64,000 nucleotides of DNA from NCBI GenBank assembly GCA_963734545.1, contig CAVTHO010000007.1, forward strand, positions 672,001 to 736,000. Direction: 5' to 3'. The first letter of the stretch is position 1; each line of letters opens with the position of its first letter. A model generated the notes under the pieces. The model was not told the DNA's origin. It ran no database searches and was given only the letters and a program-made list of their open reading frames with translations. Shown here one piece after another: positions 29,256-44,227 of the stretch. Made by a program: the position numbers and the translations under genes. The DNA comes from an uncultured Spirochaetota bacterium. Lineage in GTDB: Bacteria; Spirochaetota; Spirochaetia; SZUA-6; Fen-1364.

Positions 29256-29956
29256 TTCTGTTCCCTCCGGCCGAAGAGGGCGGTTCCGACTCTCACAAGG
29301 GTCGCCCCTTCCTCTATGGCGATCTCGAAGTCACTCGACATGCCCATGGACAGCGTATCGAAGAACGGCAGCCCGCCGCCCGCCCGCACCTCCTCGAATA
29401 CGGAGCGGAGGGCGGCAAATGAAGAGCGAACTCTCTGCGTATCCTCGCTGAGGGGACCCACCGTCATCAATCCCCTCACCCGGAGGTGCGTCAGCTTCCC
29501 GATCCACTCCAATCCGGCAAGCAGCTCGCTGCGGGACAGAAACCCTGACTTGGTGGGCTCGCCGCTCGTATTGAGCTCCAGCAGGATGTCCACTGTCCTG
29601 CCTCGCTCTTCGCACCGGGCATGGAGGGCTTCCGCGGTCTCCCGCTTGTCAATCGACTGAACGCACGCGAACAGGCCCGAGGCCGCGCGCGCCTTGTTTC
29701 TCTGCAGGTGCCCGATGAGATGGAGCTCGAACCCGCCGGGCAGGTCGAGGTATTTCTGCTCTGCTTCCTGCACCCGGTTTTCTCCGAACAACGACAGGCC
29801 TGCCGCCCGCGCATCGAGCACGACCTGCTGGGGAAAGCCCTTTGTCACGGCCATGAGCCTGACGGCCGACGCGTCCCGGCCCGCCCTCTGCGCGGCGGCG
29901 CTGATGCGGTCCCGTACTGCCGCAACGGCGGACGTGAGAGTTCCTACCATCTCCAT
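29252..29956 (-). CDS. yggS: PLP homeostasis protein YggS/PROSC
   Basis: MAVTK, FGENRVQE, HLIGHLQRNK, LSMGMSSDF, VRVGTALFG. Confidence 0.95.
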   Translation of the reverse strand: MEMVGTLTSAVAAVRDRISAAAQRAGRDASAVRLMAVTKGFPQQVVLDARAAGLSLFGENRVQEAEQKYLDLPGGFELHLIGHLQRNKARAASGLFACVQSIDKRETAEALHARCEERGRTVDILLELNTSGEPTKSGFLSRSELLAGLEWIGKLTHLRVRGLMTVGPLSEDTQRVRSSFAALRSVFEEVRAGGGLPFFDTLSMGMSSDFEIAIEEGATLVRVGTALFGRREQK

Positions 29957-30468
29957 TGCCGCACCGGAGGATATGCCCTGCTCACCGCTGCGGCGACAAG
30001 TATTCCGAGCAGCACGCCTACGCCGCCCTGCAGGAGATTGCCCGGCACGTCACCGAGTGACGCCCCGAACCCCGCAATAAGAGACCCGCCCGCCAGGTAG
30101 CCGCCAGCCATGACTGCAATGCCGACAAGGCCGGCGGCGATGCTCAAGCCCACGTTCGCGGGCCGGGCGCGCGCAATGAGCCCTACCAGCAGTCCCTGCA
30201 GACCGTGCACGACGAGGGAGATCGGCGCCCAGATGGCAAACGGGCTCAGGAGATCGGCGAGTGCCGTTCCGATCCCCCCGGCGAACATCGCCGAAACAGG
30301 GCCGAGGGTTATGGCGGTAAACACGATCGCGACGTCCCCCAGATTGATGTACCCCCTGGCGGGAGTCGGTATCTGCACGACCCTTGTCAGCACGGTCGTG
30401 ACAGCAGCGAGAATCGCAATGGAAGCAATCCGAAATGCCGGTGACATGACCGGCCGATCATCGCTCAT
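29944..30468 (-). CDS. ECF transporter substrate-binding S component
   Basis: Very hydrophobic; IPTPARGYINLGD, GGIGTALADLL; adjacent to T and A components. Confidence 0.85.
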   Translation of the reverse strand: MSDDRPVMSPAFRIASIAILAAVTTVLTRVVQIPTPARGYINLGDVAIVFTAITLGPVSAMFAGGIGTALADLLSPFAIWAPISLVVHGLQGLLVGLIARARPANVGLSIAAGLVGIAVMAGGYLAGGSLIAGFGASLGDVPGNLLQGGVGVLLGILVAAAVSRAYPPVRQWRW

Positions 30469-30594
30469 GCAGAGCCTCCCTGTGAGAGTATAGGCGAAAA
30501 ACAGCCGTCCGAAAAGAACATGCCGCGGCATCCGGCGGCGCTGCGCGATTACGGCGCGCGAGCATACGCGACAGCTGCGCGCGAGCCGGTGCGA

Positions 30595-31372
30595 TCAGGC
30601 CTGCCAGCGTACCAGCGCCGGACTGATGAACAGGAAGCTGAGACAGAGACACACGATCAGGTCGGCAACCAGGCGCCGGCCCTTTTTCAGTTCCGCGTAT
30701 ACGGTCCGGGGATTCCGTCTTCCGAATCCCCGGCTCTCGAGAGCCATGGCGAGCACCGGTATGCCCTTGACCGCCTCGATCAGCAGGGAGGTAAGAACCG
30801 GGCAGATAGGTATCGATGATCTTCTTTCTTCCCCGGGTCGCGGGCGGACCGGCCCGCAGCCGATGCGCGTCCAGCACGTTGTGCCAGGTCGACGCAAGGG
30901 AGGGCATGGTCCGCAGGGCGACGATCACCACCAGGCAGAACGTGTAGGGAAGACCGAACCATCTCAGGCTGAGGACAAGATCGTCGAGGGAGACGGTCCT
31001 GACAACCGCAAAGAACCCGAATGTGACTCCGATAAATCGCAGGAGCAGGATCAGGGTTTCGCGCACTCCGTCGCTCGTCAGGAGAACAAGGCCGAACAGC
31101 GTGACGACATTCGTGCCCGCCCGGTGAAAGGGCGGGGTCAGAAGGCAGATGAAGACGAGGACGGGCGCCATCGCCTCGAGCGGGGGAAGAAGCTGGCGGA
31201 GTCCCAGCGCCGACGCAGTGACGATCACCAGGGCCGCCGCGAATGGCGCAAGCACCAGGGGCGGAACGGGAAGGAAGAAGCAGATGAAGAGGGGAACAAG
31301 AAGGAGAAGCTTGGCCCGGGGATCGAAACGGTGAAGAAAGCTGTGCCCGGGCCGGAAAAAATCCACGCTCAT
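30595..31372 (-). CDS. ECF transporter transmembrane T component (frameshift near 30800)
   Basis: HRFDPRAKL, AHRLRA, ALESRGF. Confidence 0.85.
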
Positions 31373-32841
31373 GAAGCGGCCTCCCGGGAAACAGAGGGTC
31401 GGAAATCGCGGCTCAGCTTCCCGGATTCCAGGACGAGAATCCTGTCGGCCAGCGACATCGCCAGGTCCATATCGTGCGTGATCAGGATGATGCCCGGCGC
31501 GCGCGGGATCAGCGCGTCGAGCAGGCGCTCGACCTCCCTGCAGGAAAGCCCCGAGTCGATCTCATCGAGGACCAGGATCTCGCGGGGCAGCAGGTAGGAG
31601 ATCGCCGCCTGCAGTCTCCTGCGGCCGCCATAGCTCATGAGCGCGGGAGGAGAGGCCGGGTCGGGCAGCGAAAAGAGCCCGACGGCTTCTTCGATTTTCT
31701 GTTCGATCTCGTCCCTGCTCATGCCCTGCCGCCGCAGGCCGAGGGCAAGCTCGTCGCGGACAGTGGGAAGGTAGATCTGGTGGTCGGGATTCTGAAAGAG
31801 ATATCCCACCCTCCCATTGAGCTCGTTCGCGGAAGCAGGGGAGAACCCCGAGCCCGAGCGCAGCGACACAACGCCGGTCTGCGGCGTCAGAAGGCCGCAG
31901 AGGATCCTTCCAAGAGTCGTCTTTCCCGATCCATTCCTTCCGAGGAGCGCGCATACCTCGCCGGCGCGCACGTCGAGAGAATCAATGGCCAATGAAAAGC
32001 TGTCCCGACCGGGGAAGCGAAAACTCACTCCTTCCACCCTGAGCTGGACCTGGGCAGACCCTCCGCGGGAGGGCCCCTTTTCCTTGCGCGGGAGGATACC
32101 TTCGCCGGACAGCGCGCGGTGGAGCTCGGGCGCATCTCCGCTGTCCGCAGATGAGACTATCCGGCCCTGCGAGAGGAGCGCGAAATGGCCGCCCCTGTCC
32201 GCCAGGAGCGGGGACCACCTCGAAGCAAGCGCAAGCACGGTCCTTCCCGTTTCAGCGAGAAGGTCCAGCGTGGCGGTTTTCCAGGCCTGATCGAGCTCGT
32301 CGAGGGACTCGTCGAGGATCCAGAGCGCGGGCCCGATCGCAAGAAGACACGCAAGGAGAAGTCTCTTTTTCTCCCCTCCCGAAAGAGTGGACGGATTTCT
32401 GTCTTTGAATGCAGAGAGACCCATTTTTCGGAGGCTCTCCTCCACCCGGTCGACAATTCGAGGCCGGGGCACTCCAAGGGATTCAAGGGCAAATGCCAGC
32501 TCAGTGTCACAACGGGTCGTGAAGATCTGCTCATCAGAATCCTGGGAGACGAGCCCGACTTTTTCCATGAGCTCGAACGGCGCGGATTTTCGCACATCCT
32601 GGCCGTCGAGAATGATCGTCCCGTCCAGCGTGCCCCCCGAGAAGCGCGGCACGAGTCCCGCCACGATCCGCGCAAAGGTGGTCTTGCCCGCGTCGGCTGC
32701 CCCGAAAAGCACGGTCACACCGCCCGTCCTGATTGTCAGCGTGAACCCGTCATGCACCGGGGCGGCTTTCTCCACGCCCATGCGGGGGTAGCGGAATGAC
32801 AGGTCCTTCACGATGAGCAGCGGAGTGTCCGGGAGGTCCAT
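31369..32841 (-). CDS. ECF-type ABC ATPase with two fused nucleotide-binding domains
   Basis: GAADAGKTT/LSGGEKKR and GRNGSGKTT/FQNPDHQI/ITHD. Confidence 0.9.
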   Translation of the reverse strand: MDLPDTPLLIVKDLSFRYPRMGVEKAAPVHDGFTLTIRTGGVTVLFGAADAGKTTFARIVAGLVPRFSGGTLDGTIILDGQDVRKSAPFELMEKVGLVSQDSDEQIFTTRCDTELAFALESLGVPRPRIVDRVEESLRKMGLSAFKDRNPSTLSGGEKKRLLLACLLAIGPALWILDESLDELDQAWKTATLDLLAETGRTVLALASRWSPLLADRGGHFALLSQGRIVSSADSGDAPELHRALSGEGILPRKEKGPSRGGSAQVQLRVEGVSFRFPGRDSFSLAIDSLDVRAGEVCALLGRNGSGKTTLGRILCGLLTPQTGVVSLRSGSGFSPASANELNGRVGYLFQNPDHQIYLPTVRDELALGLRRQGMSRDEIEQKIEEAVGLFSLPDPASPPALMSYGGRRRLQAAISYLLPREILVLDEIDSGLSCREVERLLDALIPRAPGIILITHDMDLAMSLADRILVLESGKLSRDFRPSVSREAAS

Positions 32842-33045: not shown

Positions 33046-33185
33046 TCGCGGTCGCTCCTGGCGACATTCGCGGTCGCTTCTGGCGACATTCGCGGTCGCT
33101 CCTGGCGACATTCGCGGTCGCTCCTGGCGACATTCGCGGTCGCTCCTGGCGACATGCGCGGTCGCTCCTGGCGACATTCGCGGTC
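33046..33185. repeat. Tandem array of 6 full plus 1 partial copies of the 22-bp unit TCGCGGTCGCTCCTGGCGACAT
   Basis: Read directly; only 2 substitutions across the array; each unit contains the inverted repeat GTCGC-N5-GCGAC. Confidence 0.97.
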
Positions 33186-33627
33186 ACGCGTCCAGGACGA
33201 CCTCCGCTTCCCAGCCGTCCTGCACCGCCTCCACCCGGTAGCGATAGAGACTGACCGCTTTCACGTCCGCGGCCAGCTTGTGCCTCATGGGATCGATCCG
33301 TTCTCCCCTGAGCACGGCGGACAGGGAGGCGACGGGAAGCGCGTTGCCCGCGCCTTCCGCGATCCGCACGGATTCGATTCTCAGCAGCAGGCCTTCGGTG
33401 TCCTTGGAAACGATCACCCACTGCAGGAGCTCGAAGAGCAGCATCTCGATTCCCTCGGCGGACAGCTGGATCTCCCTTTCCTCACGGGGAGTGATGGAAA
33501 AGAGATCGTAGACCATCGCGTTGACCAGCGCATCCACGGACGAATGAAACAGCTCCTCCAGCGTTTCTCCCGTTGCCGAGAACGCGACATCCGCGATTGC
33601 CCGGTCATCAAGATAGCGCCAAGGCAC
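33184..33627 (-). CDS. Archease family protein
   Basis: WRYLDD..ADVAF.A.G.TLEELF, GE.IDP..H, DVKAVS, EVVLD. Confidence 0.88.
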   Translation of the reverse strand: MPWRYLDDRAIADVAFSATGETLEELFHSSVDALVNAMVYDLFSITPREEREIQLSAEGIEMLLFELLQWVIVSKDTEGLLLRIESVRIAEGAGNALPVASLSAVLRGERIDPMRHKLAADVKAVSLYRYRVEAVQDGWEAEVVLDA

Positions 33628-33680: not shown

Positions 33681-34648
33681 TCAATACCGGCGATGCAGCA
33701 GCTTTTCCGTCACCCCGACCAGCGTGTCGATTGAAGGGTGGGACGGCAACCGACGAATTTCCCGCAGAGACCTTTCCGTGTACTGCTGGGCACGCAGGCG
33801 CGCCCCTTCGAACCCGCCCCTTTCCTCTATCAGGCGCGCGGCGCGGGACAGCGCGCGGCGCCCCCGGGGCCGCCGCGCCAGCGCGGCAGCCAGCTTGTCG
33901 TCATCACCGCGCAAGGCGATGATGGTCGGAAGCGTGTAGATCCCCTGCGAGATGTCGCTTCCCGTCGGCTTGCCGGTTTCCGCGCCGTGCCCTCTCGAAA
34001 TCCAGGATATCATCGATGATCTGGAAGCCCATGCCCAGGCAGTAGCCGAGTCTCCTGAATATGCTGCACACCTGGGCGGTACATCCGCTCTCGTGCGCCC
34101 CGACGTAGAAGGACAGGGAGAACAGCGCGGCGGTCTTTCCCGCGATCCTTCGAAGATACCGGCGGATGCTCGTGCTGGGCGTCATAGCGATCGGCGGACT
34201 GGCTGATCTCGCTGCCGCAGATACGGGCAACCAGCCGGGAGAGGGCCTGCGCATTGTCCACCTTTGCCAGGTCTGCAATCAGCGAAAAACACGACGCAAA
34301 GAGCCAGTCTCCGACAAGAACCGCCTTGCGCGGCCCGTGCAGGACATGCAGCGTGGCGACTCCCCGGCGGGTCGGTGCACCGTCGATGACGTCATCATGC
34401 ACGAGTGTCGCCATGTGCAGCATCTCGACGGCCGCGCCTATGCGGATCATCCGCGCCGCATCCGGGGTACCGAAGCGCGAGGACAGGAGGACAAACGCGG
34501 GACGCAGCATCTTTCCGCTCGCATCCAGAAGCTGACGGACCGCGCCATGCACCTCCGTGTCGTCCGTGGCGGCGCGCGAGAGGATCGTCTCCCGCACGCA
34601 GTCGAGCTCACGCGCCAGCTCCGGATGCCCGTCCCAGAAGGGCCTCAT
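33681..34648 (-). CDS. Polyprenyl diphosphate synthase (HepT/DmkB-like; frameshifts near 34170 and 33995)
   Basis: GKMLRP, LVHDDVID, GKTAALF, FQIIDDILD, GKPTGSDI..GIYTLP. Confidence 0.92.
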
Positions 34649-34651
34649 TTC

Positions 34652-36711
34652 TTATTTCGTTGGTTCATCCGCGTAGAACCGGGTCTTTCTGGCGAACCGG
34701 GTGCCGTTCCACCATCTCTTGAAAAACGGCACAACCCAGGTGTCGAGCCCGAACGCCCTGCCTGCCCCGCCCATCATGAGGATAGCGGCGAAGAAGAACC
34801 AGAGCTGATTCCACGCGAACATGCCGGAGAGCGTGAAGATCAGGCACATCCCGATCGAGGCCACCGCCGCCCACCAGGTGAACAGACCGCCGAAGAGCGC
34901 GAGCCCGATGAGCAGCTCGGCGAAGACAATCATCACCTGAAACCAGGAATACGGCAGATAGGCGAAGATCCCGTCCATGAAGGTCTGCCGGAACCAGGTC
35001 ACGAGGCCCGAGCCGGGATCCAGGATGGTCTTTGTCGTGTCGAGCCAGGGCCCGTGCACCGCCGGGGCGGCCGCGCCAGCCGCACCGGAGGCCGCGGACG
35101 CTGCGGAGGTGACATCCACCGCAGCGGCGGCGCCGGCCGCGGCGCCGGCCGCCGCAGCCCCTGATTGCGCGGCAGAGGCGGCCGTGGTGGCGTCCGGGAT
35201 TTTCAGCCCTGCCTGGATGACACCCGGGGAAAACATCCAGCCTGTCTGGCTCTTGCCGGTGGAAAAATCGAGCCATCCCTGCGTGATCTTGTTCGTCGAC
35301 TCCACGACCCACATGAATCCGAGCCATAGTCTCAGGAGCAGGGGCCAGTAGCCGCGCACCTTGTACGAGGCCAGCGCTCCCACGAAAGACCGCCCGTTCT
35401 TTACGTCGAGGAATTCGTGCTTGACGTACTCCCACACCTGATTGACGCCGGCCGTGCCGAAGAGATGCACCACGTTGATCAGGTGTTTCACCGCAATGGC
35501 AAAGATTCCCGTCAGCGAGATGCCCATGACATGGGCCACGCCGGAGAATGCTCCCAGGGAAACCATGATCCCGTGGTAGCGCGAGCGGAAAGCCTTCATT
35601 TGTCCGTTGGTGATGTCCGCGATGATATTGTGCGCCGCTGTCTCCGCGGTCTGCACGGCGGCCTCCACGATCTGGGGATTGACCCTCTTGCCTTCCAGGT
35701 GCCACGCGACGTCCCCGACGATGTAGACGTTCGGATAGTCGACGGACTGCATGTATTCGTTGGCAAGCAGGCGGCCCCTTTTGCCCTCGATATAGCGGTC
35801 CTTGGAAAAAGTGCAGTTCTTCACGCCGCAGGTGCCCTGAGTCGTGGCGAACCGGCACATTCGGTTGCCGCATTTTCCCTTTGTGAGCGCCAGGTTTGCC
35901 GCAAACTCGCAGCCCTGGATTCCGCAGGTCCAGATGAATGTCCGGGTGGCGATGGACCTGTTCCCGGCCAGGAGCACTCCATTCTGGTCCGCGCCGATGA
36001 TGGGAGAGCGCAGCATGATCTGCACCCCCCGTTTTTCCAGTGAGCGCTTGTGCTTTCTGCTGCAGCTTCTGGGGAAGATTCGGAATGATCGCGTCCAGTG
36101 CCTCCACGACGATGATGCGGACTTCCTTTTCATCGATGTGGTGCGCGCGGCACAGCACGCGCCGCTGGTCCTTGAGCTCACCCGCGAGCTCGATACCGGT
36201 AAAGCCCGCTCCGGCTATGACGAAAGTCAGGAGCTCCGCCCGCTTCGCCGGGTCCTTCTCCGCGGCCGCCCGGCGGAAAACATCCTCGATATGGCGGCGA
36301 ATCTCCAGCGCGTCCTCGAATGACCAGATGGTGAAGGCGTGTTCCTTGATGCCCGGGATGCCGTAGTACTCCGGCTCTCCTCCCACCCCGAGCACGATGT
36401 AGTCAAACGCATACTGCCCGGTGTCGGAAATGGCCTGACGCGCCTCGAAATCTATCGTGCGTATCCTGTCAGTCACAAGGGAGACCGGTCGGGCGCCGAA
36501 GATCTTTTTGAAGCTGATCTGAACGGAAGCGGGGTCCACACGGCCGCCCGCCACTTCGTGCAGCTCGGTCATGAGCGTGTGGTGCCGCGTTCTTGTCTAT
36601 CAGCGTGATCTCGATGTCGCGACGCATCCCGATCTTGCGCGCGAGCACTTTGGCGGCTTCGACTCCGCCGTACCCTCCGCCCAGAACGAGGATGCGGGTA
36701 ATGTCTGGCAT
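34652..36711 (-). CDS. Type II NADH dehydrogenase fused to a C-terminal DoxX-like membrane domain (frameshifts near 36585 and 36040)
   Basis: GGGYGG, LHEVAGG, GAGFTGIELAGE, VGDVA, PQIVEAAVQTA, then LRLWLGFMW...AELLIGLALFGGLFT...AGRAFGLD. Confidence 0.88.
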
Positions 36712-36762: not shown

Positions 36763-36834
36763 TACTGAGGGGTGTGCGCCCGACAGAAAGGCCGCAATTG
36801 CGCCGACCGGCAGCGGCGTGCTATAAAACGTTCC

Positions 36835-37872
36835 ATGGCTCGGTCCTTGCGGTGGCCGCGGCGCGCGGCCGCTGCCGCCCTTCTCATCCTGGCCGGCGTC
36901 TTTCCCACGGCAGCCGAACCACTCAAGCGTTCCGTCCTCAATCTCCTGGGAACCACTTCGGAGATCACGCTGTATGCCGGCGGCACGGAGTCCGCCTTCG
37001 ATGCCGCATTTGCCCGGATCGCCGAGATAGACTCGGCCATGACGATCAACAAGCCCGACAGCGAGGTGATCCGGGTGAACAAGGCAGCCGGTCTGCATCC
37101 GGTCAAGGTGGCGCCCGATGTGTTTTTTGTCATCAAGCGCGGTCTTGAGTTCTCCCTCCTGGGGAACGGCGCCTTCGATATCACGGTTGCCCCCCTCGTG
37201 GCGCTCTGGGGAATCGGCACGGCGCACGCGCGCGTTCCCCGCCCGGATGAGATCAAGGAAACACTCGCCCTCGTCGGCAGCAGAAATCTCGAGCTTCAGG
37301 AGGCCGGCTCCACCGTGTTCCTGAAGAGGCCGGGCATGGGAATCGACCTCGGTTCCATGGCCAAGGGATATGCCGCGGACGAGGTGGCGCGTGTCCTGAG
37401 GGAGCACGGAGTCACGAGTGCCTTGATCAACCTCGGCGGCAATATTCTCACAATGGGACAGAAGCCGGACGGCACCCCGTGGCGCATCGGCATCCAGAAT
37501 CCCGAGGAGCCGAGAGGCACCCCGGTCGGCGTCGTCGAGATCCCGCGCGGCTCGGTCACCACCGCCGGCACCTACGAGCGGTATTTCACTTCGGGGGGAA
37601 AGAGATACTTCCATATCCTCGATGCAAGGACCGGATACCCTGCGTGGAACGGGCTTGCGGCCGTTTCAATAGTTGCCGGTGATTCCATGAGCGCGGACGG
37701 ATATGACACGGTTGTTTTCACCCAGGGGCTGAACGCCGGGCGCGCGCTCGTCGAGGCTGCGCATGGCGCAATCGAAGCGGTCTTCATTACGGAGAAGCGC
37801 GGGATCTATGTCACTCCGGCGCTGCGCCCGAGATTCAAGCTCAGCGATTCACGGTTCACGATGATCAACTAG
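36835..37872 (+). CDS. apbE: FAD:protein FMN transferase (ApbE/Ftp/FmnB family)
   Basis: LGT, FDITVAPLVALWG, IDLGSMAKGYAAD, NLGGN, TAGTYERYF, HILDARTGYP, ADGYDT; N-terminal signal peptide. Confidence 0.95.
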   Translation: MARSLRWPRRAAAAALLILAGVFPTAAEPLKRSVLNLLGTTSEITLYAGGTESAFDAAFARIAEIDSAMTINKPDSEVIRVNKAAGLHPVKVAPDVFFVIKRGLEFSLLGNGAFDITVAPLVALWGIGTAHARVPRPDEIKETLALVGSRNLELQEAGSTVFLKRPGMGIDLGSMAKGYAADEVARVLREHGVTSALINLGGNILTMGQKPDGTPWRIGIQNPEEPRGTPVGVVEIPRGSVTTAGTYERYFTSGGKRYFHILDARTGYPAWNGLAAVSIVAGDSMSADGYDTVVFTQGLNAGRALVEAAHGAIEAVFITEKRGIYVTPALRPRFKLSDSRFTMIN

Positions 37873-37893: not shown

Positions 37894-38832
37894 CTACCTC
37901 CCGGGCAGGAGCAGCGAGATGCAGAAGAGAACGCCGAACACGAGATGGTGGAGCATCACGAGCGGGATGACCGGCTTCCTCTTTTCCGGCGCCCGGGGCA
38001 TGAATAAAAACGGGGGCACGGTGAGGGGCAGCGCGAGGTAGATCAGCCAGGGAGGAGGATAGAGGCCTCCCAGCAGGAGCAGGACGGGACTCGCATACGC
38101 GCACCCCAGAAGCACGCAATATACGCCTATGGCGCGCCGGTAGCCGATACGCACGGTGAGTGTCCGCAGAGCGTATCGACTGTCTGATTCGAAATCCCGA
38201 AGCTCATTTGCCAGGAGGATGAGGGATACGAGGAAGCTCACGGGAATCGAAACCAGCACGACCTTCCAGGAGAAGGCCCCCGAGACGGCGGAGTAGGCGC
38301 CCGCGACCATGCACACGCCCATCAGGAAGAAGACGATCACCACGGCGAGCCCCCGCCGTTTATAGTTGAGAGGCTCCCCGGTGTAGAAGAATCCGCCGGC
38401 GAATCCCACGAGCCCCAGGATGATGAGAGCCCAGCCGCTCCGCCATGCCAGGAACAATCCGAGAAGTCCGGCAAAACCGAAAAACGCGAGTCCGACAAGG
38501 AAGATGAGCCACTCCAGCAGCTCGCGATCGGCCTTTGTGAATCCGAGATGCGCGACCTTGTCCCCTACCCTTTTCTGACGAAACTCGAAGAAATCATTGA
38601 CGAGATTCACACCGGCCTGCAGCGCGAGCCCGTCTGCCATCACGCAGATCGCGTTCAGGAGATCGCCGCGGCCGTCGCGGTAGGCGAGCAGCACTCCCAG
38701 CGAGCACGAGAATGCGGCGATCACCAGCGAGGGGAAGCGCAGGGCAATGAAGCCCGCGCGCCACGCGCGCAGGTCGAAAGCGAGGCGCAGCGAGTCCCGT
38801 ACGAGGGGGCGCAGGAGGGCGATGAGCTTCAT
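37894..38832 (-). CDS. UbiA-family prenyltransferase, MenA/DmkA-like
   Basis: QAGVNLVNDFFE, YTGEPLNYKRRGL, NELRDFESD, TLTVRIG; multi-TM. Confidence 0.88.
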   Translation of the reverse strand: MKLIALLRPLVRDSLRLAFDLRAWRAGFIALRFPSLVIAAFSCSLGVLLAYRDGRGDLLNAICVMADGLALQAGVNLVNDFFEFRQKRVGDKVAHLGFTKADRELLEWLIFLVGLAFFGFAGLLGLFLAWRSGWALIILGLVGFAGGFFYTGEPLNYKRRGLAVVIVFFLMGVCMVAGAYSAVSGAFSWKVVLVSIPVSFLVSLILLANELRDFESDSRYALRTLTVRIGYRRAIGVYCVLLGCAYASPVLLLLGGLYPPPWLIYLALPLTVPPFLFMPRAPEKRKPVIPLVMLHHLVFGVLFCISLLLPGR

Positions 38833-38842
38833 CCGCGCCCGC

Positions 38843-39508
38843 TCACATGCCCCAGAAGGGCCGGGGACGCACCAGCGTGTACACGAGAGGTGCCCAATTG
38901 ACACAGACAACCACGGCCAGCGCGAGAATTCCTTTGAGCGTGGAGCGGACCGGGGCGCGAGGGTCCCGCGAGACCGACCCACCGGCGGCCTGGATTTCAA
39001 TGAGAATCCGATCGATGCTGCCGATGATGTCTTTTCGATCCATCTCCCGCCTTTGGCTCATGATCGATTCGAAATAGTAGAATGACCTGCCGAGGAGCCC
39101 GCCCATTCGGCCGGGAAGCCGGAGATCGGACCTCAGGGAGAATTGGGACAAGGCGATGAGCCCGATCATTGCCGTTGCCTTGGAAACCCCTGTTTTCAAC
39201 GCCCCCTCGGTAAGCGGAAGCCCGAGCACATCCACAAGCACTTTTCCCGTGGGAATTGCCAGGTTGAATAGAACTATGCCGGCAGCAATGACCAGGAACT
39301 GCAATGGCCTTACCCGTCGGCCGGTGAGCGCATTCAGGCTGGCGACAAAAACGATCAGCAGCCCCCGCAGCACCAGGTCCTGCTGGAGCAGGAAAGCGGG
39401 AAAAAGCAATGCTCCCGCGGCGAGAAGGGCTCCCGGAGTGACATGTGCCTGCAGGAAGACGCCGAGGCTCCGGTCCTTCACGTGATTTCTCTCGCTGACG
39501 CCAGCCAT
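38843..39508 (-). CDS. Membrane protein, distantly EcfT/FmnA-like
   Basis: 4-5 TM segments, PTGKVL...LTEGALKTG motif; coupled to the Gx transporter gene. Confidence 0.5.
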   Translation of the reverse strand: MAGVSERNHVKDRSLGVFLQAHVTPGALLAAGALLFPAFLLQQDLVLRGLLIVFVASLNALTGRRVRPLQFLVIAAGIVLFNLAIPTGKVLVDVLGLPLTEGALKTGVSKATAMIGLIALSQFSLRSDLRLPGRMGGLLGRSFYYFESIMSQRREMDRKDIIGSIDRILIEIQAAGGSVSRDPRAPVRSTLKGILALAVVVCVNWAPLVYTLVRPRPFWGM

Positions 39509-40011
39509 CGGGACCGCGACGCGAACTTTTCGGCAAAGGCGCCCAGGACAGCGGCGGTCACAGTGCCGAGGGCGATGAAAGGAGGCGCGATCAGCCAGGC
39601 TCCCTCCCCGAATATCAAGGCGCGCGCCAGCCAGAGCTGCATCGTGTTGCTGAAAAGCGCGCCGAATACTCCCACACCAATCAGCGAGATGTGTCTGCCG
39701 CACACCCGCCGGAAAAACAGCATGGAAAGCGCGCTTGCAAGCGAACCGACCGCGGAAAAGAGAAAGACGTAGGACAGGAGTGTCCCTCCCAGGAGGGCCT
39801 GTCCGAGGATCTTCAACATCACCACGAGAAGGACGAGGGGCACGGGAAGCAGATCGAGGCTGATGAGGACCGGGAGGTTGGCAATTCCCACGCGGAGAAA
39901 GGGAACCGGCTTGGGGATCATGTACTCGATTGCCGAGAGAAACAGGCACATTGCGCCAAGGAGCGCGACCAGGTCGAGTCTCCTAGTAAGAGATGTCGTC
40001 GATTTTCTCAC
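39478..40011 (-). CDS. Gx transporter / heptaprenyl diphosphate synthase component I family (EetB-like)
   Basis: LSAIEYMIPKPVPFLRVGIAN, SLIGVGVFGALFSNTMQL. Confidence 0.88.
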   Translation of the reverse strand: MRKSTTSLTRRLDLVALLGAMCLFLSAIEYMIPKPVPFLRVGIANLPVLISLDLLPVPLVLLVVMLKILGQALLGGTLLSYVFLFSAVGSLASALSMLFFRRVCGRHISLIGVGVFGALFSNTMQLWLARALIFGEGAWLIAPPFIALGTVTAAVLGAFAEKFASRSRWLASAREIT

Positions 40012-40348
40012 CGCTCGTTCCTCGTACCCGCACGAAAACCCGATTCGGCAGGCAGGCGATCCATTGCCCCGGCCTCGAGATGGCGGGCATGTGGACACAC
40101 AGCTTGTCGGGGCAGGGAGAGTCCACGACCGAGGCGCTCCCGTCCTGTATCGCGACGATCGTCCCTCCCAGGGGGCCCATGACCGTCTCTCTTCTGTCCT
40201 GGTCCAGCGGGTAAATCCACCGGGCACCGGACGCCTCGATCACCACCTCCCCGGCGCCGGCCCTCCCCGCGTACGCGTATAGAGAGAATCCTCCGATGGC
40301 AAGGAGAGAAATCAAGACGGCGAGAAAATCCACTGCTCTGAGCTTCAT
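39983..40348 (-). CDS. NusG domain II-containing exported protein (EetA-like)
   Basis: N-terminal TM helix, GPLG, SPCPDKLCV, IACLPNRV. Confidence 0.9.
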   Translation of the reverse strand: MKLRAVDFLAVLISLLAIGGFSLYAYAGRAGAGEVVIEASGARWIYPLDQDRRETVMGPLGGTIVAIQDGSASVVDSPCPDKLCVHMPAISRPGQWIACLPNRVFVRVRGTSGEKIDDISY

Positions 40349-40563: not shown

Positions 40564-41682
40564 TCATGAAGAGGTCCCGCGGATTTTCCATGCCGGGAGG
40601 TGACCGTGCGTCTGTTCGTTCCATTCGCTCGCCGGCAGCTTCTCGTGCACGCCCGTGATCACGCACCCTCCCGGGCGGAGCGCGCGTCTGAATCCTGCGA
40701 TTGTGATTTTCTGGGCGCGGGCGTCGAGGTACGAGAGCCGGTCGCGATATAAGATCAGGTCGAAGGATTCCGGGACGGGAACAAAGGCATCCGAACAGAC
40801 GAGAACGATCCTTTCGCGGACCGCGTCGTTTCCAGAGAACCGCCCGTCCTTTTCCTCCAGCACTCCGGACCTTTTCAGGTATTCCGGCACGTCTGAATGG
40901 GGCAGCGAGCAGTCCTGGGCTTCCACGATCGCCTCCAGCCTGTCAACGGCCCAGATTTTCGCACGCAGCCTGGGCCGGTCCATTGCGAGGATGCATGCGA
41001 GTGAGAGGGCATCAAGCCCTCGGCCGCATTCAGGGTTCCAGACCGAGAACTGCCGAGCGGATGAGCCGGGCATCAGCGGTTTCAGCCCCGCCCGGAGGCT
41101 TTCATTCCAGAGCGTATCGATGCAGGGCGAGCCGAAACCTGCAAGAAACTCCGCTGCACGCTCCCGGGTGGCAGGGAGTGCGCGGCCCCATTTCGCGCTC
41201 CGATACCGTCTCGTGACCCACGCGATGTTCACATCTGACACCGTGTAGGACGCGTGCTTCCCCAGGGCGTCACGAAGGTCGGTCCATGCGTCTGCGGCGC
41301 GGGGAACGGGGTGGTCTCCAAAGAAAGTGCCGGGATCCAGCATGTGTCGATCAGGCTTCGAGTCCGCGAAAGGCCCTGATATGCTGTCGACTGCGATGGC
41401 AACATTCGCTCCCGCTGTCTGAACAACCACTGCCGTGCCGGGAGGTGTCGCCTCTCCGCGGCGGGGGAGCATGCCAAGACGGGGGAGCGGATCGAGAACC
41501 GGCAGCGGCGCTCCCTTCCAGGTGTGCAATCCGAGAACATCTGCGGAGGCTCCGTTCAAGCGTGCGATTCGTTCGATGGCGAATGTCCCCGCCACGTTCG
41601 CGGATTCGATTCCGAATTCGACGCCGGCAATGGAAACCGTATAGATCAAACCTTCCGGTCCGTGCACACCTTGCGCGGGCAT
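40564..41682 (-). CDS. CheW-CheR-like fusion protein (start uncertain)
   Basis: CheW domain (FGIES, LGLHTWKGAPLPVLD, AIAVDSI) plus degenerate CheR domain (VWNPECGRGLDALSLA, FDLILYRDRLSY, ALRPGG). Confidence 0.72.
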   Translation of the reverse strand: MPAQGVHGPEGLIYTVSIAGVEFGIESANVAGTFAIERIARLNGASADVLGLHTWKGAPLPVLDPLPRLGMLPRRGEATPPGTAVVVQTAGANVAIAVDSISGPFADSKPDRHMLDPGTFFGDHPVPRAADAWTDLRDALGKHASYTVSDVNIAWVTRRYRSAKWGRALPATRERAAEFLAGFGSPCIDTLWNESLRAGLKPLMPGSSARQFSVWNPECGRGLDALSLACILAMDRPRLRAKIWAVDRLEAIVEAQDCSLPHSDVPEYLKRSGVLEEKDGRFSGNDAVRERIVLVCSDAFVPVPESFDLILYRDRLSYLDARAQKITIAGFRRALRPGGCVITGVHEKLPASEWNEQTHGHLPAWKIRGTSS

Positions 41683-41704
41683 TGCATGGTCCGGCACGGG
41701 GGTC

Positions 41705-43373
41705 TCAGCTTCTCCGCTTCCGGGCAGTGGTCGCCGCAGCGATGTACGAAGCGACATCGATAATGAGCGCAACCTCCCCGTCCGCCCGGGCAGCCGCCGC
41801 GGCGATGCCGGGCGTCCGGGCCCCCGCGTAGTCGATGGCCGCGGGAGCAAGTCTCCCTTCCCCCTCCAGCTTGTCGAAAACAAGGACCGCATTCAGACCA
41901 CCCGCGCTCACCACAACGCCCGCGTGAGGGACATCGCCGCCGGGCGCCGCTATGACCTGCAGCTTTTCGCTTCCTGAAATGTACTCCTGCCCGGGCGGGG
42001 AGCCGGGATGCACTTCACAACTTCATCGACTGGGATCGCATAAACAGAGTCTCCGGCCCTGCCCAGGATGAAGCTTCCATCGATTCTCCCCTTCCCCCGC
42101 GGGCGGGGAAGCTCCAGTGAGAAGACGGTTTTCTCTCCGTTCTCGGATTCTATCTGGAAGCCGATGCCTTTGCGTGCGAGCCTCGGGCGTATGCCCGAAA
42201 GAGCCTCTTCGAGCTTCTGTTTCGATGAGACACGCCCCAGGTGGCGGAGACTCAGCCGTACCTTTTCTCCCTCGGCGTCAGCCTGCAGGTGAAGCCGGCT
42301 GACAGGGGCTCGAGTCTTTTTTTTCAGGCTTTGCGGTCGTCTTGTTTCAGCATCCAGCGAGGCGCGCACGCACCGATTTATCGTGGTGGCTGCCGTGTCC
42401 GCAAGCGCGGCGTCTATCTCGAGATCCTGCAGGTCAACGGCTGTCTCTACCGGGAATGACAGCTTCACCGCATGCCTTCGCACGAGCCGGGGAAACCGGC
42501 GAACAGTGCGGCGAGCCGGACGCTTCCGATCCGCGCAGCAGCCTCCCGGGCAGCCGCTGAGGCTCGCTCCCCTTTCTTCGCCGCCTCCCGCAGCCTGGCC
42601 GTGAAACCCGAGAATGATTCCTCGAACTCCGATGCGATCCTGCCAAAAGCGGCGACACGCGCGGACAGCTCGCCCGCAATGCTCGTGGTCGGCTGGCCGC
42701 GCGCCGCAGCGGCGAGCCCGCCGGGGATGGCCTCGAGAAGCTCACGAACACCGCGCTCCTGCTGCGCGGCCAGGGTGCGAAGCCCCGAAAGAAGGGCGAG
42801 GGATTCTTCCGCGGTCCGGGCAGCCAATGCGGCGGCCGCTCCGGATTCACCCGCTGCCGCCTGCGCCGCACGCAGGCGGCGCGCATCGACTCTCGTGAGC
42901 ACGAGGCCGGCCTGTCCCCCGGACCCTTCCGCGTCCTGCAGGCGCGCCGGCTGCGCGAGCAGGGTTTCCAGGGCGCGCGCCGCGGATTCACACGCGCCCG
43001 AGTCCGGGGCGCCCGCGACGTGCGCCTCCAGGAATTCAAGCGCGCCCCGGGCGGCGAAGTCGAGCATCGACCCCACCTCTGCACCCGCGGGTATCCGGCC
43101 TGCGCGAACCGCCCGCACGACATCCTGGACAAGCCGGGCGATCCGCACGACTCCCGGCATCACCGCCTGATCGAGCTCCCCCTTCAGGGAATGGGCCGCG
43201 CGGTATGCCTCGTCGAGCACGGCGCCCGGGTCCCGTGTCTTCCGCAGCGAACCGGCGCTTTCCGCCAGGAACGTGAGCAGACGGCGGGCCTCGTCCAGGG
43301 AAGCCTCTTCCATCGGGCCTGTCCGCGAATCAGTGCCATCGCCGGGAGGTGCGTCCTCGCGCGGGAAATCCAT
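41705..43373 (-). CDS. CheA-like protein: HPt, degenerate kinase core and CheW domain (frameshifts near 42490 and 42000)
   Basis: YRAAHSLKG; FPRLVR after frame repair; IESENGEKTVFSLELP; YAIPVDEV; DGEVALIIDV. Confidence 0.7.
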
Positions 43374-43438: not shown

Positions 43439-43467
43439 TTGACGGGGCCGTGCTTCCTGTGTAGTAT
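43439..43467 (+). promoter_or_regulatory. sigma70 promoter for REC-PilZ gene; a divergent TTGCGC-17-TACTAT promoter at 43383-43411 serves the cheA-like gene
   Basis: TTGACG-17 nt-TAGTAT. Confidence 0.65.
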
Positions 43468-43513
43468 GGGGCCGCGGTGCGGTGCCCGCGTCATTCATCG
43501 AGGGGAGGTGCCG

Positions 43514-44227
43514 GTGGTCTTCCTTGTAGTGGAGAGCTCGCTCTCGGTGCGCGAGTCCCTGTGCCACGTTCTCCTCGCATTCGGGATCAGGGGCATCCCG
43601 GTTCCGAGCCGCCTCGCTGCCCTCGACGCCCTTTCTTCGGGTGATCAGATCGAGGGCGCGATAATCGACATCGACAACAGGGACGTCGAGGGTATTCAGC
43701 TCGTCGAAGAGCTCAAAAAGAACGAGCGCACGGCAGCCATCTCGGTCATCGTGCACACCGTACAATCCAGCAAGGGCTTCGTGATGCGGATGATCGAGCT
43801 GGGTGTCGTGGGATACCTCCTGAAGCCGTTCAGCGATTCGAATGCCAAGATCAAGCTCTCCGCGATCTTTTCGAAGATGGCCACGCACAACAGCCAGAGA
43901 AAACATATCCGGGTCAGGCCGGATCCGGGCGAGCTCGCGCGCGCGAGCTTTCGCGTCCCCAACTCGCCCCAGCTCGTTTCCGGCCGGATCGTCGATATCA
44001 GTCTCAGCGGGCTGGCCATTGAGTTGTTCAACCCGCCCGCGGCCGAGCTCCTTTCCCCGGGAACCTCGGTCAGCAGGCTGCAGTTCTCCCTCTCGGGGAA
44101 GGAGCTCTCCCCTTCGGGAAGCGTCGTGCTGTACAAAGCGAAAGTCCTCGCGCTGAGATTTGACATCATCAATCCCGCTGATAAAAAGGCCCTGGAACGC
44201 TATATTTTCAAGAGTATATCATCGTGA
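43514..44227 (+). CDS. Response regulator with REC and PilZ domains
   Basis: REC motifs IIDID, VHT, YLLKPF; PilZ motifs RKHIR (RxxxR) and DISLSG (DxSxxG); GGAGG RBS. Confidence 0.88.
   Translation: MVFLVVESSLSVRESLCHVLLAFGIRGIPVPSRLAALDALSSGDQIEGAIIDIDNRDVEGIQLVEELKKNERTAAISVIVHTVQSSKGFVMRMIELGVVGYLLKPFSDSNAKIKLSAIFSKMATHNSQRKHIRVRPDPGELARASFRVPNSPQLVSGRIVDISLSGLAIELFNPPAAELLSPGTSVSRLQFSLSGKELSPSGSVVLYKAKVLALRFDIINPADKKALERYIFKSISS

Follow-up and report, generated by a model that had tools for sequence, protein, structure and literature searches.

In the flavin-based extracellular electron transfer (EET) of Gram-positive bacteria, a type II NADH dehydrogenase (NDH-2), named Ndh2 or Ndh3, is treated solely as an NADH:quinone reductase in the EET literature covered here. 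In Enterococcus faecalis, ferric EET is reported to depend on Ndh3, demethylmenaquinone (DMK), EetA and EetB and not on PplA, with the donor after the quinol given there as unknown (PMC9864754). EET of L. plantarum to an anode is likewise reported to need Ndh2 but not PplA (PMC8837199). According to the same report, 68 of 68 surveyed Lactococcus genomes hold the genes of the flavin-based EET set (FLEET) except pplA, and two pplA-less L. lactis strains still give current (PMC8837199). EetB is reported to be the exporter of flavin adenine dinucleotide (FAD) for FmnB, and PF07456 is the family defining eetB (PMC9973259). Flavin-based EET is a subject of work on gut and food bacteria and in bioelectrochemistry, and the step at issue is the one from reduced DMK to the outside. 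The flavin transferase ApbE, in turn, attaches flavin mononucleotide (FMN) at the motif D-x-x-[S/T]-G-A-[S/T], of which the seven residues are reported to suffice, and tags in termini or surface loops are flavinylated by it (PMC12052999). Here we describe an NDH-2 gene of an uncultured Spirochaetota bacterium, found in a stretch of 64,000 nucleotides (positions 672,001 to 736,000 of contig CAVTHO010000007.1, assembly GCA_963734545.1; hereafter the window), whose product carries two copies of a relaxed form of this motif in the first loop of its C-terminal membrane domain. Judged from sequence and predicted structure, it seems to us more probable than not that these motifs are real ApbE sites and that the NDH-2 is covalently flavinylated on a flexible extracytosolic arm. 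No statement on flavinylation of NDH-2 was found in the full-text literature covered, which included Meheust 2021, Huang 2024, a 2025 ApbE review and a 2025 preprint on NDH-2 evolution.

Motif copies in the first loop of the membrane domain

The NDH-2 gene lies at 34652-36710 on the minus strand, and a C-terminal membrane domain is fused to its dehydrogenase part. The N-terminus reads ILVLGGGYGG, and the two features that define an NDH-2, the GGGxxG motif and the fold of two dinucleotide-binding domains, are both found: Pyr_redox_2 (PF07992) matches two pieces of the gene in Pfam (E 7.6e-12 and 1.7e-5), and the homologues have PF07992 plus PF00070. The gene is split over three reading frames, as discussed in the last section, and the analysis below concerns the C-terminal fragment of 463 aa (window 34655-36043, minus strand), to which all residue numbers refer. 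Along this fragment, the transmembrane (TM) helices, the loop and the motifs are arranged as follows, with confidence given as pLDDT, the predicted score of the local distance difference test.

35282-35350, minus strand: TM1, residues 232-254, inside to outside; helix pLDDT 88-95
35054-35203, minus strand: disordered Ala/Gly/Ser/Thr-rich insertion, residues 281-330, about 50 residues, with both motifs inside
35174-35194, minus strand: motif copy 1, DATTAAS, residues 284-290; last Ser is the candidate FMN attachment site
35096-35116, minus strand: motif copy 2, DVTSAAS, residues 310-316; last Ser is the candidate FMN attachment site
34772-34951, minus strand: TM2-TM4, residues 365-424; helices 365-385, 389-405 and 411-424
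34655-34771, minus strand: predicted cytoplasmic tail after TM4, rich in Lys and Arg (8/39)

The sequence-only reading of the window had placed DATTAAS and DVTSAAS in a flexible loop between TM1 and TM2, and translation of 34655-36043 returns both at exactly the positions and on the strand that it gave. In an AlphaFold2 model of the fragment, built on 66 sequences, the helices 232-254, 365-385, 389-405 and 411-424 make up a four-TM C-terminal domain, and the motifs fall between the first two of them, in a part of the chain with pLDDT below 50 over residues 294-326. Means of 10-residue blocks are 32-56 over the insertion (281-330), and the extracytoplasmic segments on its two sides, residues 255-280 and 331-364, are modelled confidently (pLDDT 82-95). 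The same low-confidence insertion and the same confident flanks appear when the C-domain is modelled by itself. In the first loop, 110 residues from TM1 to TM2, a small structured part is split by the disordered Ala-rich insertion.

This loop is predicted to lie outside the cytoplasm, in the periplasm, because it is set off from the NDH-2 domain, which is cytoplasmic, by just one TM helix, and because the Lys plus Arg counts follow the positive-inside tendency: 4 of the 20 residues before TM1 and 8 of the 39 in the C-terminal tail, against 4 of the 110 in the loop. With four TM helices in total, the periplasmic placement proposed earlier agrees with this prediction. The membrane domain had also been called DoxX-like. 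The DoxX (PF07681) match in the window covers TM2-TM3 and is weak, at 19.5 bits against a curated cut-off of 23.6, and some homologues have a precomputed PF07681 match. The best fold match is NACHO/TMEM35A (9h9e_C; Z 10.4, rmsd 3.4, 116 residues aligned), which stands 2.8 Z units above the next row at a level, Z below about 13, that is not decisive for helical bundles; NACHO is a protein that we take to be a member of the DoxX family. A sequence profile search of solved structures gave no match below E 0.4. With a Pfam score under the cut-off and a fold match of Z 10.4, DoxX-like is a fitting word for the resemblance of the four-TM domain, not for a shown membership of the family. No FMN_bind (PF04205) match was found on the fragment in Pfam at E up to 0.01.

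The pair of motifs in the loop is far from chance. A scan for D..[ST][GA]A[ST] over every genomic open frame of at least 150 aa, 14,465 frames with 4.31 million residues in total, gave 46 matches, and the only two copies lying at most 40 residues apart are those of the NDH-2 loop. A recent tandem duplication of DNA was considered as the source of the two copies and is ruled out, since their codons differ (gac gcc acc acg gcc gcc tct in copy 1, gat gtc acc tcc gca gcg tcc in copy 2) and Tandem Repeats Finder detected no repeat of the 7-residue motif unit in the loop DNA. What it did report there are small GC-rich repeats of 24-26 bases only, at 35086-35109 and 35124-35152, the former overlapping the DVTSAAS codons. 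As to the match with the ApbE motif, it stands for both copies in the relaxed form D-x-x-[S/T]-A-A-S, a tolerance known from one other substrate-enzyme pair only, in which about 50% of the flavinylation is reported to be left after Gly-to-Ala and the effect of Asp-to-Ala to be minor (PMC12052999), and does not extend to the strict form with Gly.

Conservation of the motif among homologues

A word-indexed search found 478 homologues, the best 120 of which are fusion proteins of 645-793 aa; the named members among these 120 come from metagenome-assembled genomes of Spirochaetia. Loops were delimited by sequence anchors and compared with composition-preserving shuffles. The homologue loops are unalignable except for a recurring [D/E/A]-A-[T/V/A]-[S/T/A]-[A/G]-A-[S/T], present in 1 to about 7 copies in nearly all of them. 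Loops with at least one [DENQ]..[STA][GAS]A[ST] were counted in three sets, in the second of which the anchor-based loop-finder recovered 20 of the 36 proteins.

Close homologues: 107 full-length proteins, 98 distinct loops, 84 with the pattern
Representatives at 50% identity: 36 full-length proteins, 20 distinct loops, 17 with the pattern
Lactobacillales: 120 full-length proteins, 38 distinct loops, 37 with the pattern

The motif is conserved in an otherwise variable loop, in homologues from two phyla, as had been anticipated from the window. Within the close homologues, [ST][GA]A[ST] is found in 90 of 98 loops with 310 copies (shuffle mean 54.6, maximum 74) and [DENQ]..[STA][GAS]A[ST] with 189 copies (shuffle mean 16.2), and the Gly core [STA]GA[ST] is found in 38 of 38 distinct Lactobacillales loops with 45 copies (shuffle mean 3.0); these shuffle figures are not probabilities and overstate significance, since the homologues are related. 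Position counts over the loops give a fixed register, with Asp/Glu at -6, Ala at -5, Thr/Val at -4, Ala at -1 and Ser/Thr at 0. By sequence comparison, the conserved positions -6, -1 and 0 are those of the ApbE motif, and the Ala forms are tied to this motif by the Gly forms of Bacillota.

Loops differ widely in length and in the number of copies, and individual cases illustrate how the motif persists. A single copy is left in the shortest ones (DSVTAAT in L037, DAVSAAS in L040). In the AT-rich relative L034, the loop has Ser, Lys and Asp in place of Ala as its abundant residues and still holds VTGAS, SSGAS, VTSAS and VSSAS. The metagenomic L123 mixes DAATGAS with DVVTAAS, DTVTAAS and DTVAAAS in one loop, and protein P0172 has TTSGAS and DATSAAS. 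Short loops with one canonical-looking site each (DATTGAS, DTTSGAT, DATAGAS or LVSGAS) are seen in representatives that bear the names Clostridiales, Halanaerobiales or Bacillota. Strict or Gly-core forms occur in distant relatives, among them P0174 and P0202 (both DATTGAS), L123 and all the Lactobacillales loops. The latter include the loop of a 667-aa NADH dehydrogenase of Lactococcus lactis/cremoris, recognized by a match to the C-domain profile, with ADAAAGAS and ADAAAGAT, and that of a 648-aa relative in E. faecalis with QVTTGAS and ATTAAS; we infer that the former is the FLEET ndh2 product and the latter Ndh3. Over the C-terminal 250 residues, the E. faecalis sequence is matched in every position by a further entry, P0415, which is labelled L. 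monocytogenes. An exception is P0036, whose loop is garbled by a frameshift.

Two other traits of homologue loops were observed. In many homologues of Treponemataceae/Rectinemataceae type (L027-L032, P0059-P0093 and others), an acidic-aromatic tail, such as DAVSAASEEWVEGG, comes after every motif copy. Its conserved Trp could stack on a tethered isoalloxazine; the clade of the window is without the tail. The loop of L036:9873-10805 (= P0124) contains about seven near-identical repeats of DTVTAASGAAQAVA, a possible multi-flavin arm.

The locus, its genome and its relatives

Around the NDH-2 gene, the window holds the following genes, including components of energy-coupling factor (ECF) transporters.

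39478-40227, minus strand: EetB homologue (ECF-S-like FAD exporter family); Pfam PF07456, E 2.5e-34
38843-39949, minus strand: membrane-protein open frame with no Pfam family, overlapping both neighbouring genes
37894-39000, minus strand: UbiA-family prenyltransferase (DmkA/MenA-like); Pfam UbiA, E 5.1e-26
36772-37872, plus strand: ApbE/FmnB-type flavin transferase with an N-terminal signal-like segment; Pfam ApbE, E 4e-90, 302 bits
33681-34648, minus strand: polyprenyl diphosphate synthase (DmkB/HepT-like), split by frameshifts; Pfam polyprenyl_synt on two pieces
33184-33627, minus strand: archease; Pfam Archease, E 5.5e-30
31369-32841, minus strand: fused double ABC ATPase (ECF-A/A'-like); Pfam ABC_tran, two stretches, E 2.9e-43
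30458-31372, minus strand: ECF-T component (CbiQ family; FmnA/EcfT-like); Pfam CbiQ, E 9.1e-15
29944-30531, minus strand: ECF riboflavin S component (RibU-like); Pfam ECF-ribofla_trS, E 1.8e-31

Judged by these predicted functions, the locus appears to be FLEET-like, corresponding to the Gram-positive gene set minus pplA. The apbE gene is the divergent neighbour of NDH-2, as had been described, and lies 61 bases from the NDH-2 start codon at 36710. No pplA gene or FMN_bind substrate was found at the locus with Pfam. The presence of a whole kit for extracytosolic flavinylation in a locus with no FMN_bind substrate counts in favour of NDH-2 as the substrate of ApbE. The open frame at 38843-39949 may encode an EetA-like protein. 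Among 80 loci, tblastn matched it in six at 28-58% identity, namely five of the six ApbE-holding loci plus L107: identity is 46-58% in L053, L068, L070 and L075, 28% in L116, and 34% in L107, which has no ApbE, and no match was seen in L090, where ApbE is present. Between the genes for the ECF ATPase and archease, a 22-base tandem repeat, TCGCGGTCGCTCCTGGCGACAT, occupies 33046-33185 in 6.4 copies with 96% identity, and each of its units holds a short inverted repeat, GTCGC...GCGAC. The locus is adjoined by genes for a CheW-CheR fusion protein (40564-41892) and a PilZ-domain response regulator (43439-44227).

Elsewhere in the genome, other flavinylation genes are present. Matches to PF04205 are confined to contig C5. 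There, a PplA-like secreted protein of 273 aa (L002 1105-1926) has two FMN_bind domains and two copies of DAISGAS; its gene lies apart from the EET-like locus, with a gene for a 357-aa protein of no assigned family on one side and one for a transporter-like membrane protein on the other. The same contig encodes a membrane FMN_bind protein of 212 aa with DAVSGAT, and an RnfD/NqrB-like gene is also present in the genome. The ApbE genes number two. The second, at C8:63232-64056 (L005 1408-2427), has an N-terminus like that of lipoproteins and is found, in a single long open frame of 941 aa, directly downstream of groEL; it is probably the housekeeping copy. The sequence-only reading had suggested that a flavinylated NDH-2 would replace PplA. 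This fails here, since the genome encodes the PplA-like protein, with the 212-aa FMN_bind protein in addition, and it is at odds with several relatives in which a PplA-like gene lies beside a motif-bearing NDH-2 (L035, L038-L040, L107, L116 and L123-L125). The idea does fit Lactococcus, for which a FLEET locus without pplA is reported (PMC8837199) and whose 667-aa NDH-2 has two DAAAGA[ST] copies in its loop.

The neighbourhood of NDH-2 in relatives has one constant partner, the polyprenyl synthase gene, which is directly downstream in 80 of 80 and in 15 of 15 related loci. PplA-like genes are nearby in 4 of 15 loci of the phylum and in 2 of 56 GTDB loci. A divergent arrangement of ApbE and NDH-2 occurs independently in L122, a contig of 29% GC that holds the exact sequence of P0237, the cluster members of which are labelled Halanaerobiales or Bacillota. 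GTDB genomes with the domain number 216. At the level of genomes, ApbE is found in 16 of 16 Spirochaetota genomes with the C-domain and in 293 of 401 overall, a co-occurrence that is consistent with the loop being a substrate but weak, because kin are not independent.

Readings of the loop and comparison with known systems

What the analysis shows is the motif, its conservation, the predicted topology and the content of the locus, and on these a scheme of electron transfer can be drawn. The NDH-2 would combine a cytoplasmic NADH:quinone oxidoreductase domain with a four-TM DoxX-like membrane domain, as an enzyme of the EET type (FLEET). FAD would be exported by the EetB/ECF system encoded in the locus, and the neighbouring secreted ApbE would transfer FMN from it to the last Ser of each motif. 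The tethered flavins may then swing back and forth from the quinol site in the membrane domain to acceptors outside, which may be free flavins, Fe(III), and PplA-like or other flavoproteins. In this way one polypeptide would link NADH, FAD, demethylmenaquinone and covalent FMN. Both the modification of the loop sites by ApbE and the carriage of electrons by the tethered flavins are steps that we infer. As a tentative generalization, to which we give somewhat less than even chances, the EET-type NDH-2s of Bacillota (including Lactococcus and Enterococcus) and Spirochaetota might all be ApbE/FmnB substrates, with one to about seven FMNs on a disordered extracytosolic arm, and this arm might be the missing electron outlet after the quinol.

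Several points weigh against this scheme. The potential of solvent-exposed FMN is much lower than that of demethylmenaquinol, and electron flow from the latter to the former is therefore not obviously favourable. No flavin-binding fold or pocket is visible around the motifs in the full or the C-domain-only model, and the natural ApbE sites described in the Huang 2024 preprint lie in folded contexts (FMN_bind, NqrB/RnfD, DUF2271). Ala replaces the Gly of the strict motif in both window copies, and the strict D..[ST]GA[ST] is in none of the 98 close-homologue loops; in one enzyme-substrate pair, the change of Gly to Ala is reported to have cut flavinylation by half (PMC12052999). A natural homologue, P0136 (625 aa), is without any motif. 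The relatedness that inflates the shuffle comparisons counts here as well, and a loop composition of about 50% Ala and about 18% Ser plus Thr yields motif cores by chance at an appreciable rate. As for the genes, the canonical substrates in the genome (PplA-like, membrane FMN_bind and RnfD/NqrB-like) would alone justify an ApbE. Adjacency of ApbE is the exception, being seen in the flanks of 4 of 15 loci of the phylum and, among the 56 Spirochaetota GTDB loci whose upstream DNA reaches 3.6 kb or more, in 6. In the closest relatives, L042 (90% C-domain identity) and L043 (85%), UbiA is in the place of ApbE, directly upstream of NDH-2, so that the apbE of the window is either a recent gain or was lost in these relatives. 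Finally, the NDH-2 gene itself is interrupted by two single-base insertions, near 36583 and near 36047-36050.

From some of the same facts, the loop could be taken as no more than a spacer, flexible and of low complexity, that joins TM1 to the structured periplasmic segment and has no flavin attached, and in which [ST]-A-A-[ST] is kept for solubility, O-glycosylation, protease resistance or a helical Ala-rich linker. The composition of the loop, its pLDDT below 50, its widely variable length and copy number, the scarcity of adjacent ApbE and the want of the strict Gly form in any close homologue all agree with such a spacer. However, composition does not produce the fixed register, and the motif persists both in the loop of L034, which is not Ala-rich, and as a single copy in the shortest loops. 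Gly-containing canonical cores in 38 of 38 Lactobacillales loops and in Bacillota representatives, together with the mixture of canonical and Ala-type copies within the one loop of L123, also speak for ApbE sites, and we regard a mere spacer as rather unlikely. Cleavage by signal peptidase at A-x-A sites of the loop was considered too and rejected, since it leaves the Asp at -6, the Ser/Thr at 0 and the Gly-type cores unaccounted for. Alternatively, the sites might be genuine ApbE sites whose flavin is no electron conduit from the quinol site but a local reservoir or shuttle source, or else a signal by which ApbE or PplA-like partners dock or assemble. The lack of a predicted flavin-binding pocket and the PplA-like genes beside motif-bearing NDH-2 in several loci, listed above, would be understandable in this case. 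Against it, the extracytoplasmic segment that houses the insertion is conserved and confidently modelled, in a quinone-type four-TM domain, and the motif is also kept in Lactococcus, whose FLEET locus is reported to be without pplA (PMC8837199); such a non-conducting role seems improbable to us.

The state of the gene raises one more explanation, that NDH-2 is a dead pseudogene here and its motifs have no present function in this genome. The sequence-only reading needs correcting in that the window holds the gene in three separate frames, 36711-36589, 36581-36027 and 36073-34655, as delimited by tblastn of the 681-aa homologue P0001. The adjoining polyprenyl synthase gene is split too, and across both genes (33681-34648 and 34652-36710) the density of frameshifts is about one per kb. 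Yet apart from the two shifts the frame is open, and the three pieces are 91-93% identical to the intact P0001. Moreover, public contigs from wetland metagenomes, 90-99% alike, miss exactly one base per break: all four runs do so at 36583/36584, and two of the four at 36047 or 36050. The source genome has 10 contigs and 5.14 Mb, yet its marker completeness is only 89%, and the picture is that of indel errors in an assembly. Taken with the metagenome contigs and the split polyprenyl synthase, this indicates that the NDH-2 frameshifts are probably assembly indels and not decay, and a pseudogene appears very improbable. It also suggests that there are indel errors throughout the assembly, and other 'pseudogenes' of this genome should be treated with caution.

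If covalent flavinylation of the loop is true, a flavinylated arm of NDH-2 would reconcile an EET that needs Ndh2/Ndh3 and EetB with its independence of PplA. It would also add a new class of ApbE substrate, the disordered loop of a membrane enzyme in place of a folded domain, and provide a natural 'flavin swinging arm' that works without a dedicated flavin-binding fold. The system would then extend to Spirochaetota of wetlands and sediments.

The closest known systems are the Gram-positive FLEET loci. Their NDH-2s (Listeria Ndh2, L. plantarum Ndh2 and E. faecalis Ndh3) have an extra C-terminal membrane domain like that of the window, and the loci share with it ApbE/FmnB, EetB, ECF parts and the genes for DMK synthesis (UbiA and polyprenyl synthase). 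The C-domain of the window is homologous to those of the Lactococcus 667-aa and E. faecalis 648-aa proteins. The window differs in its host, a member of the Spirochaetota, in the long Ala-rich loop with Ala for Gly, and in a locus without pplA. DoxX/DoxD and NACHO/TMEM35A are four-TM helical bundles as well, but a first loop of 110 residues with a motif insertion is not a described DoxX feature. PplA and the FMN_bind substrates (PF04205; NqrC and RnfG) are extracytosolic and carry a D-x-x-[S/T]-G-A-[S/T]-type motif whose last residue is the modified Ser/Thr, often in several copies, as does the loop in its relaxed form. Their motifs are described as lying in a folded flavin-holding domain of about 120-160 aa (Huang 2024 preprint), whereas those of the window are in a disordered insertion without FMN_bind. 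NqrB and RnfD are integral membrane proteins that are flavinylated by ApbE, on Thr, on a polypeptide of membrane electron transfer, as is proposed for the window; in contrast, they have an unrelated fold (PF03116) with a single ordered site and belong to multi-subunit ion pumps. For the engineered Flavin-tag, it is reported that ApbE needs no more than the 7-residue motif itself, placed in a flexible terminus or a surface loop (PMC12052999). That tag is artificial and has the canonical Gly form, and the loop of the window would be its natural equivalent.

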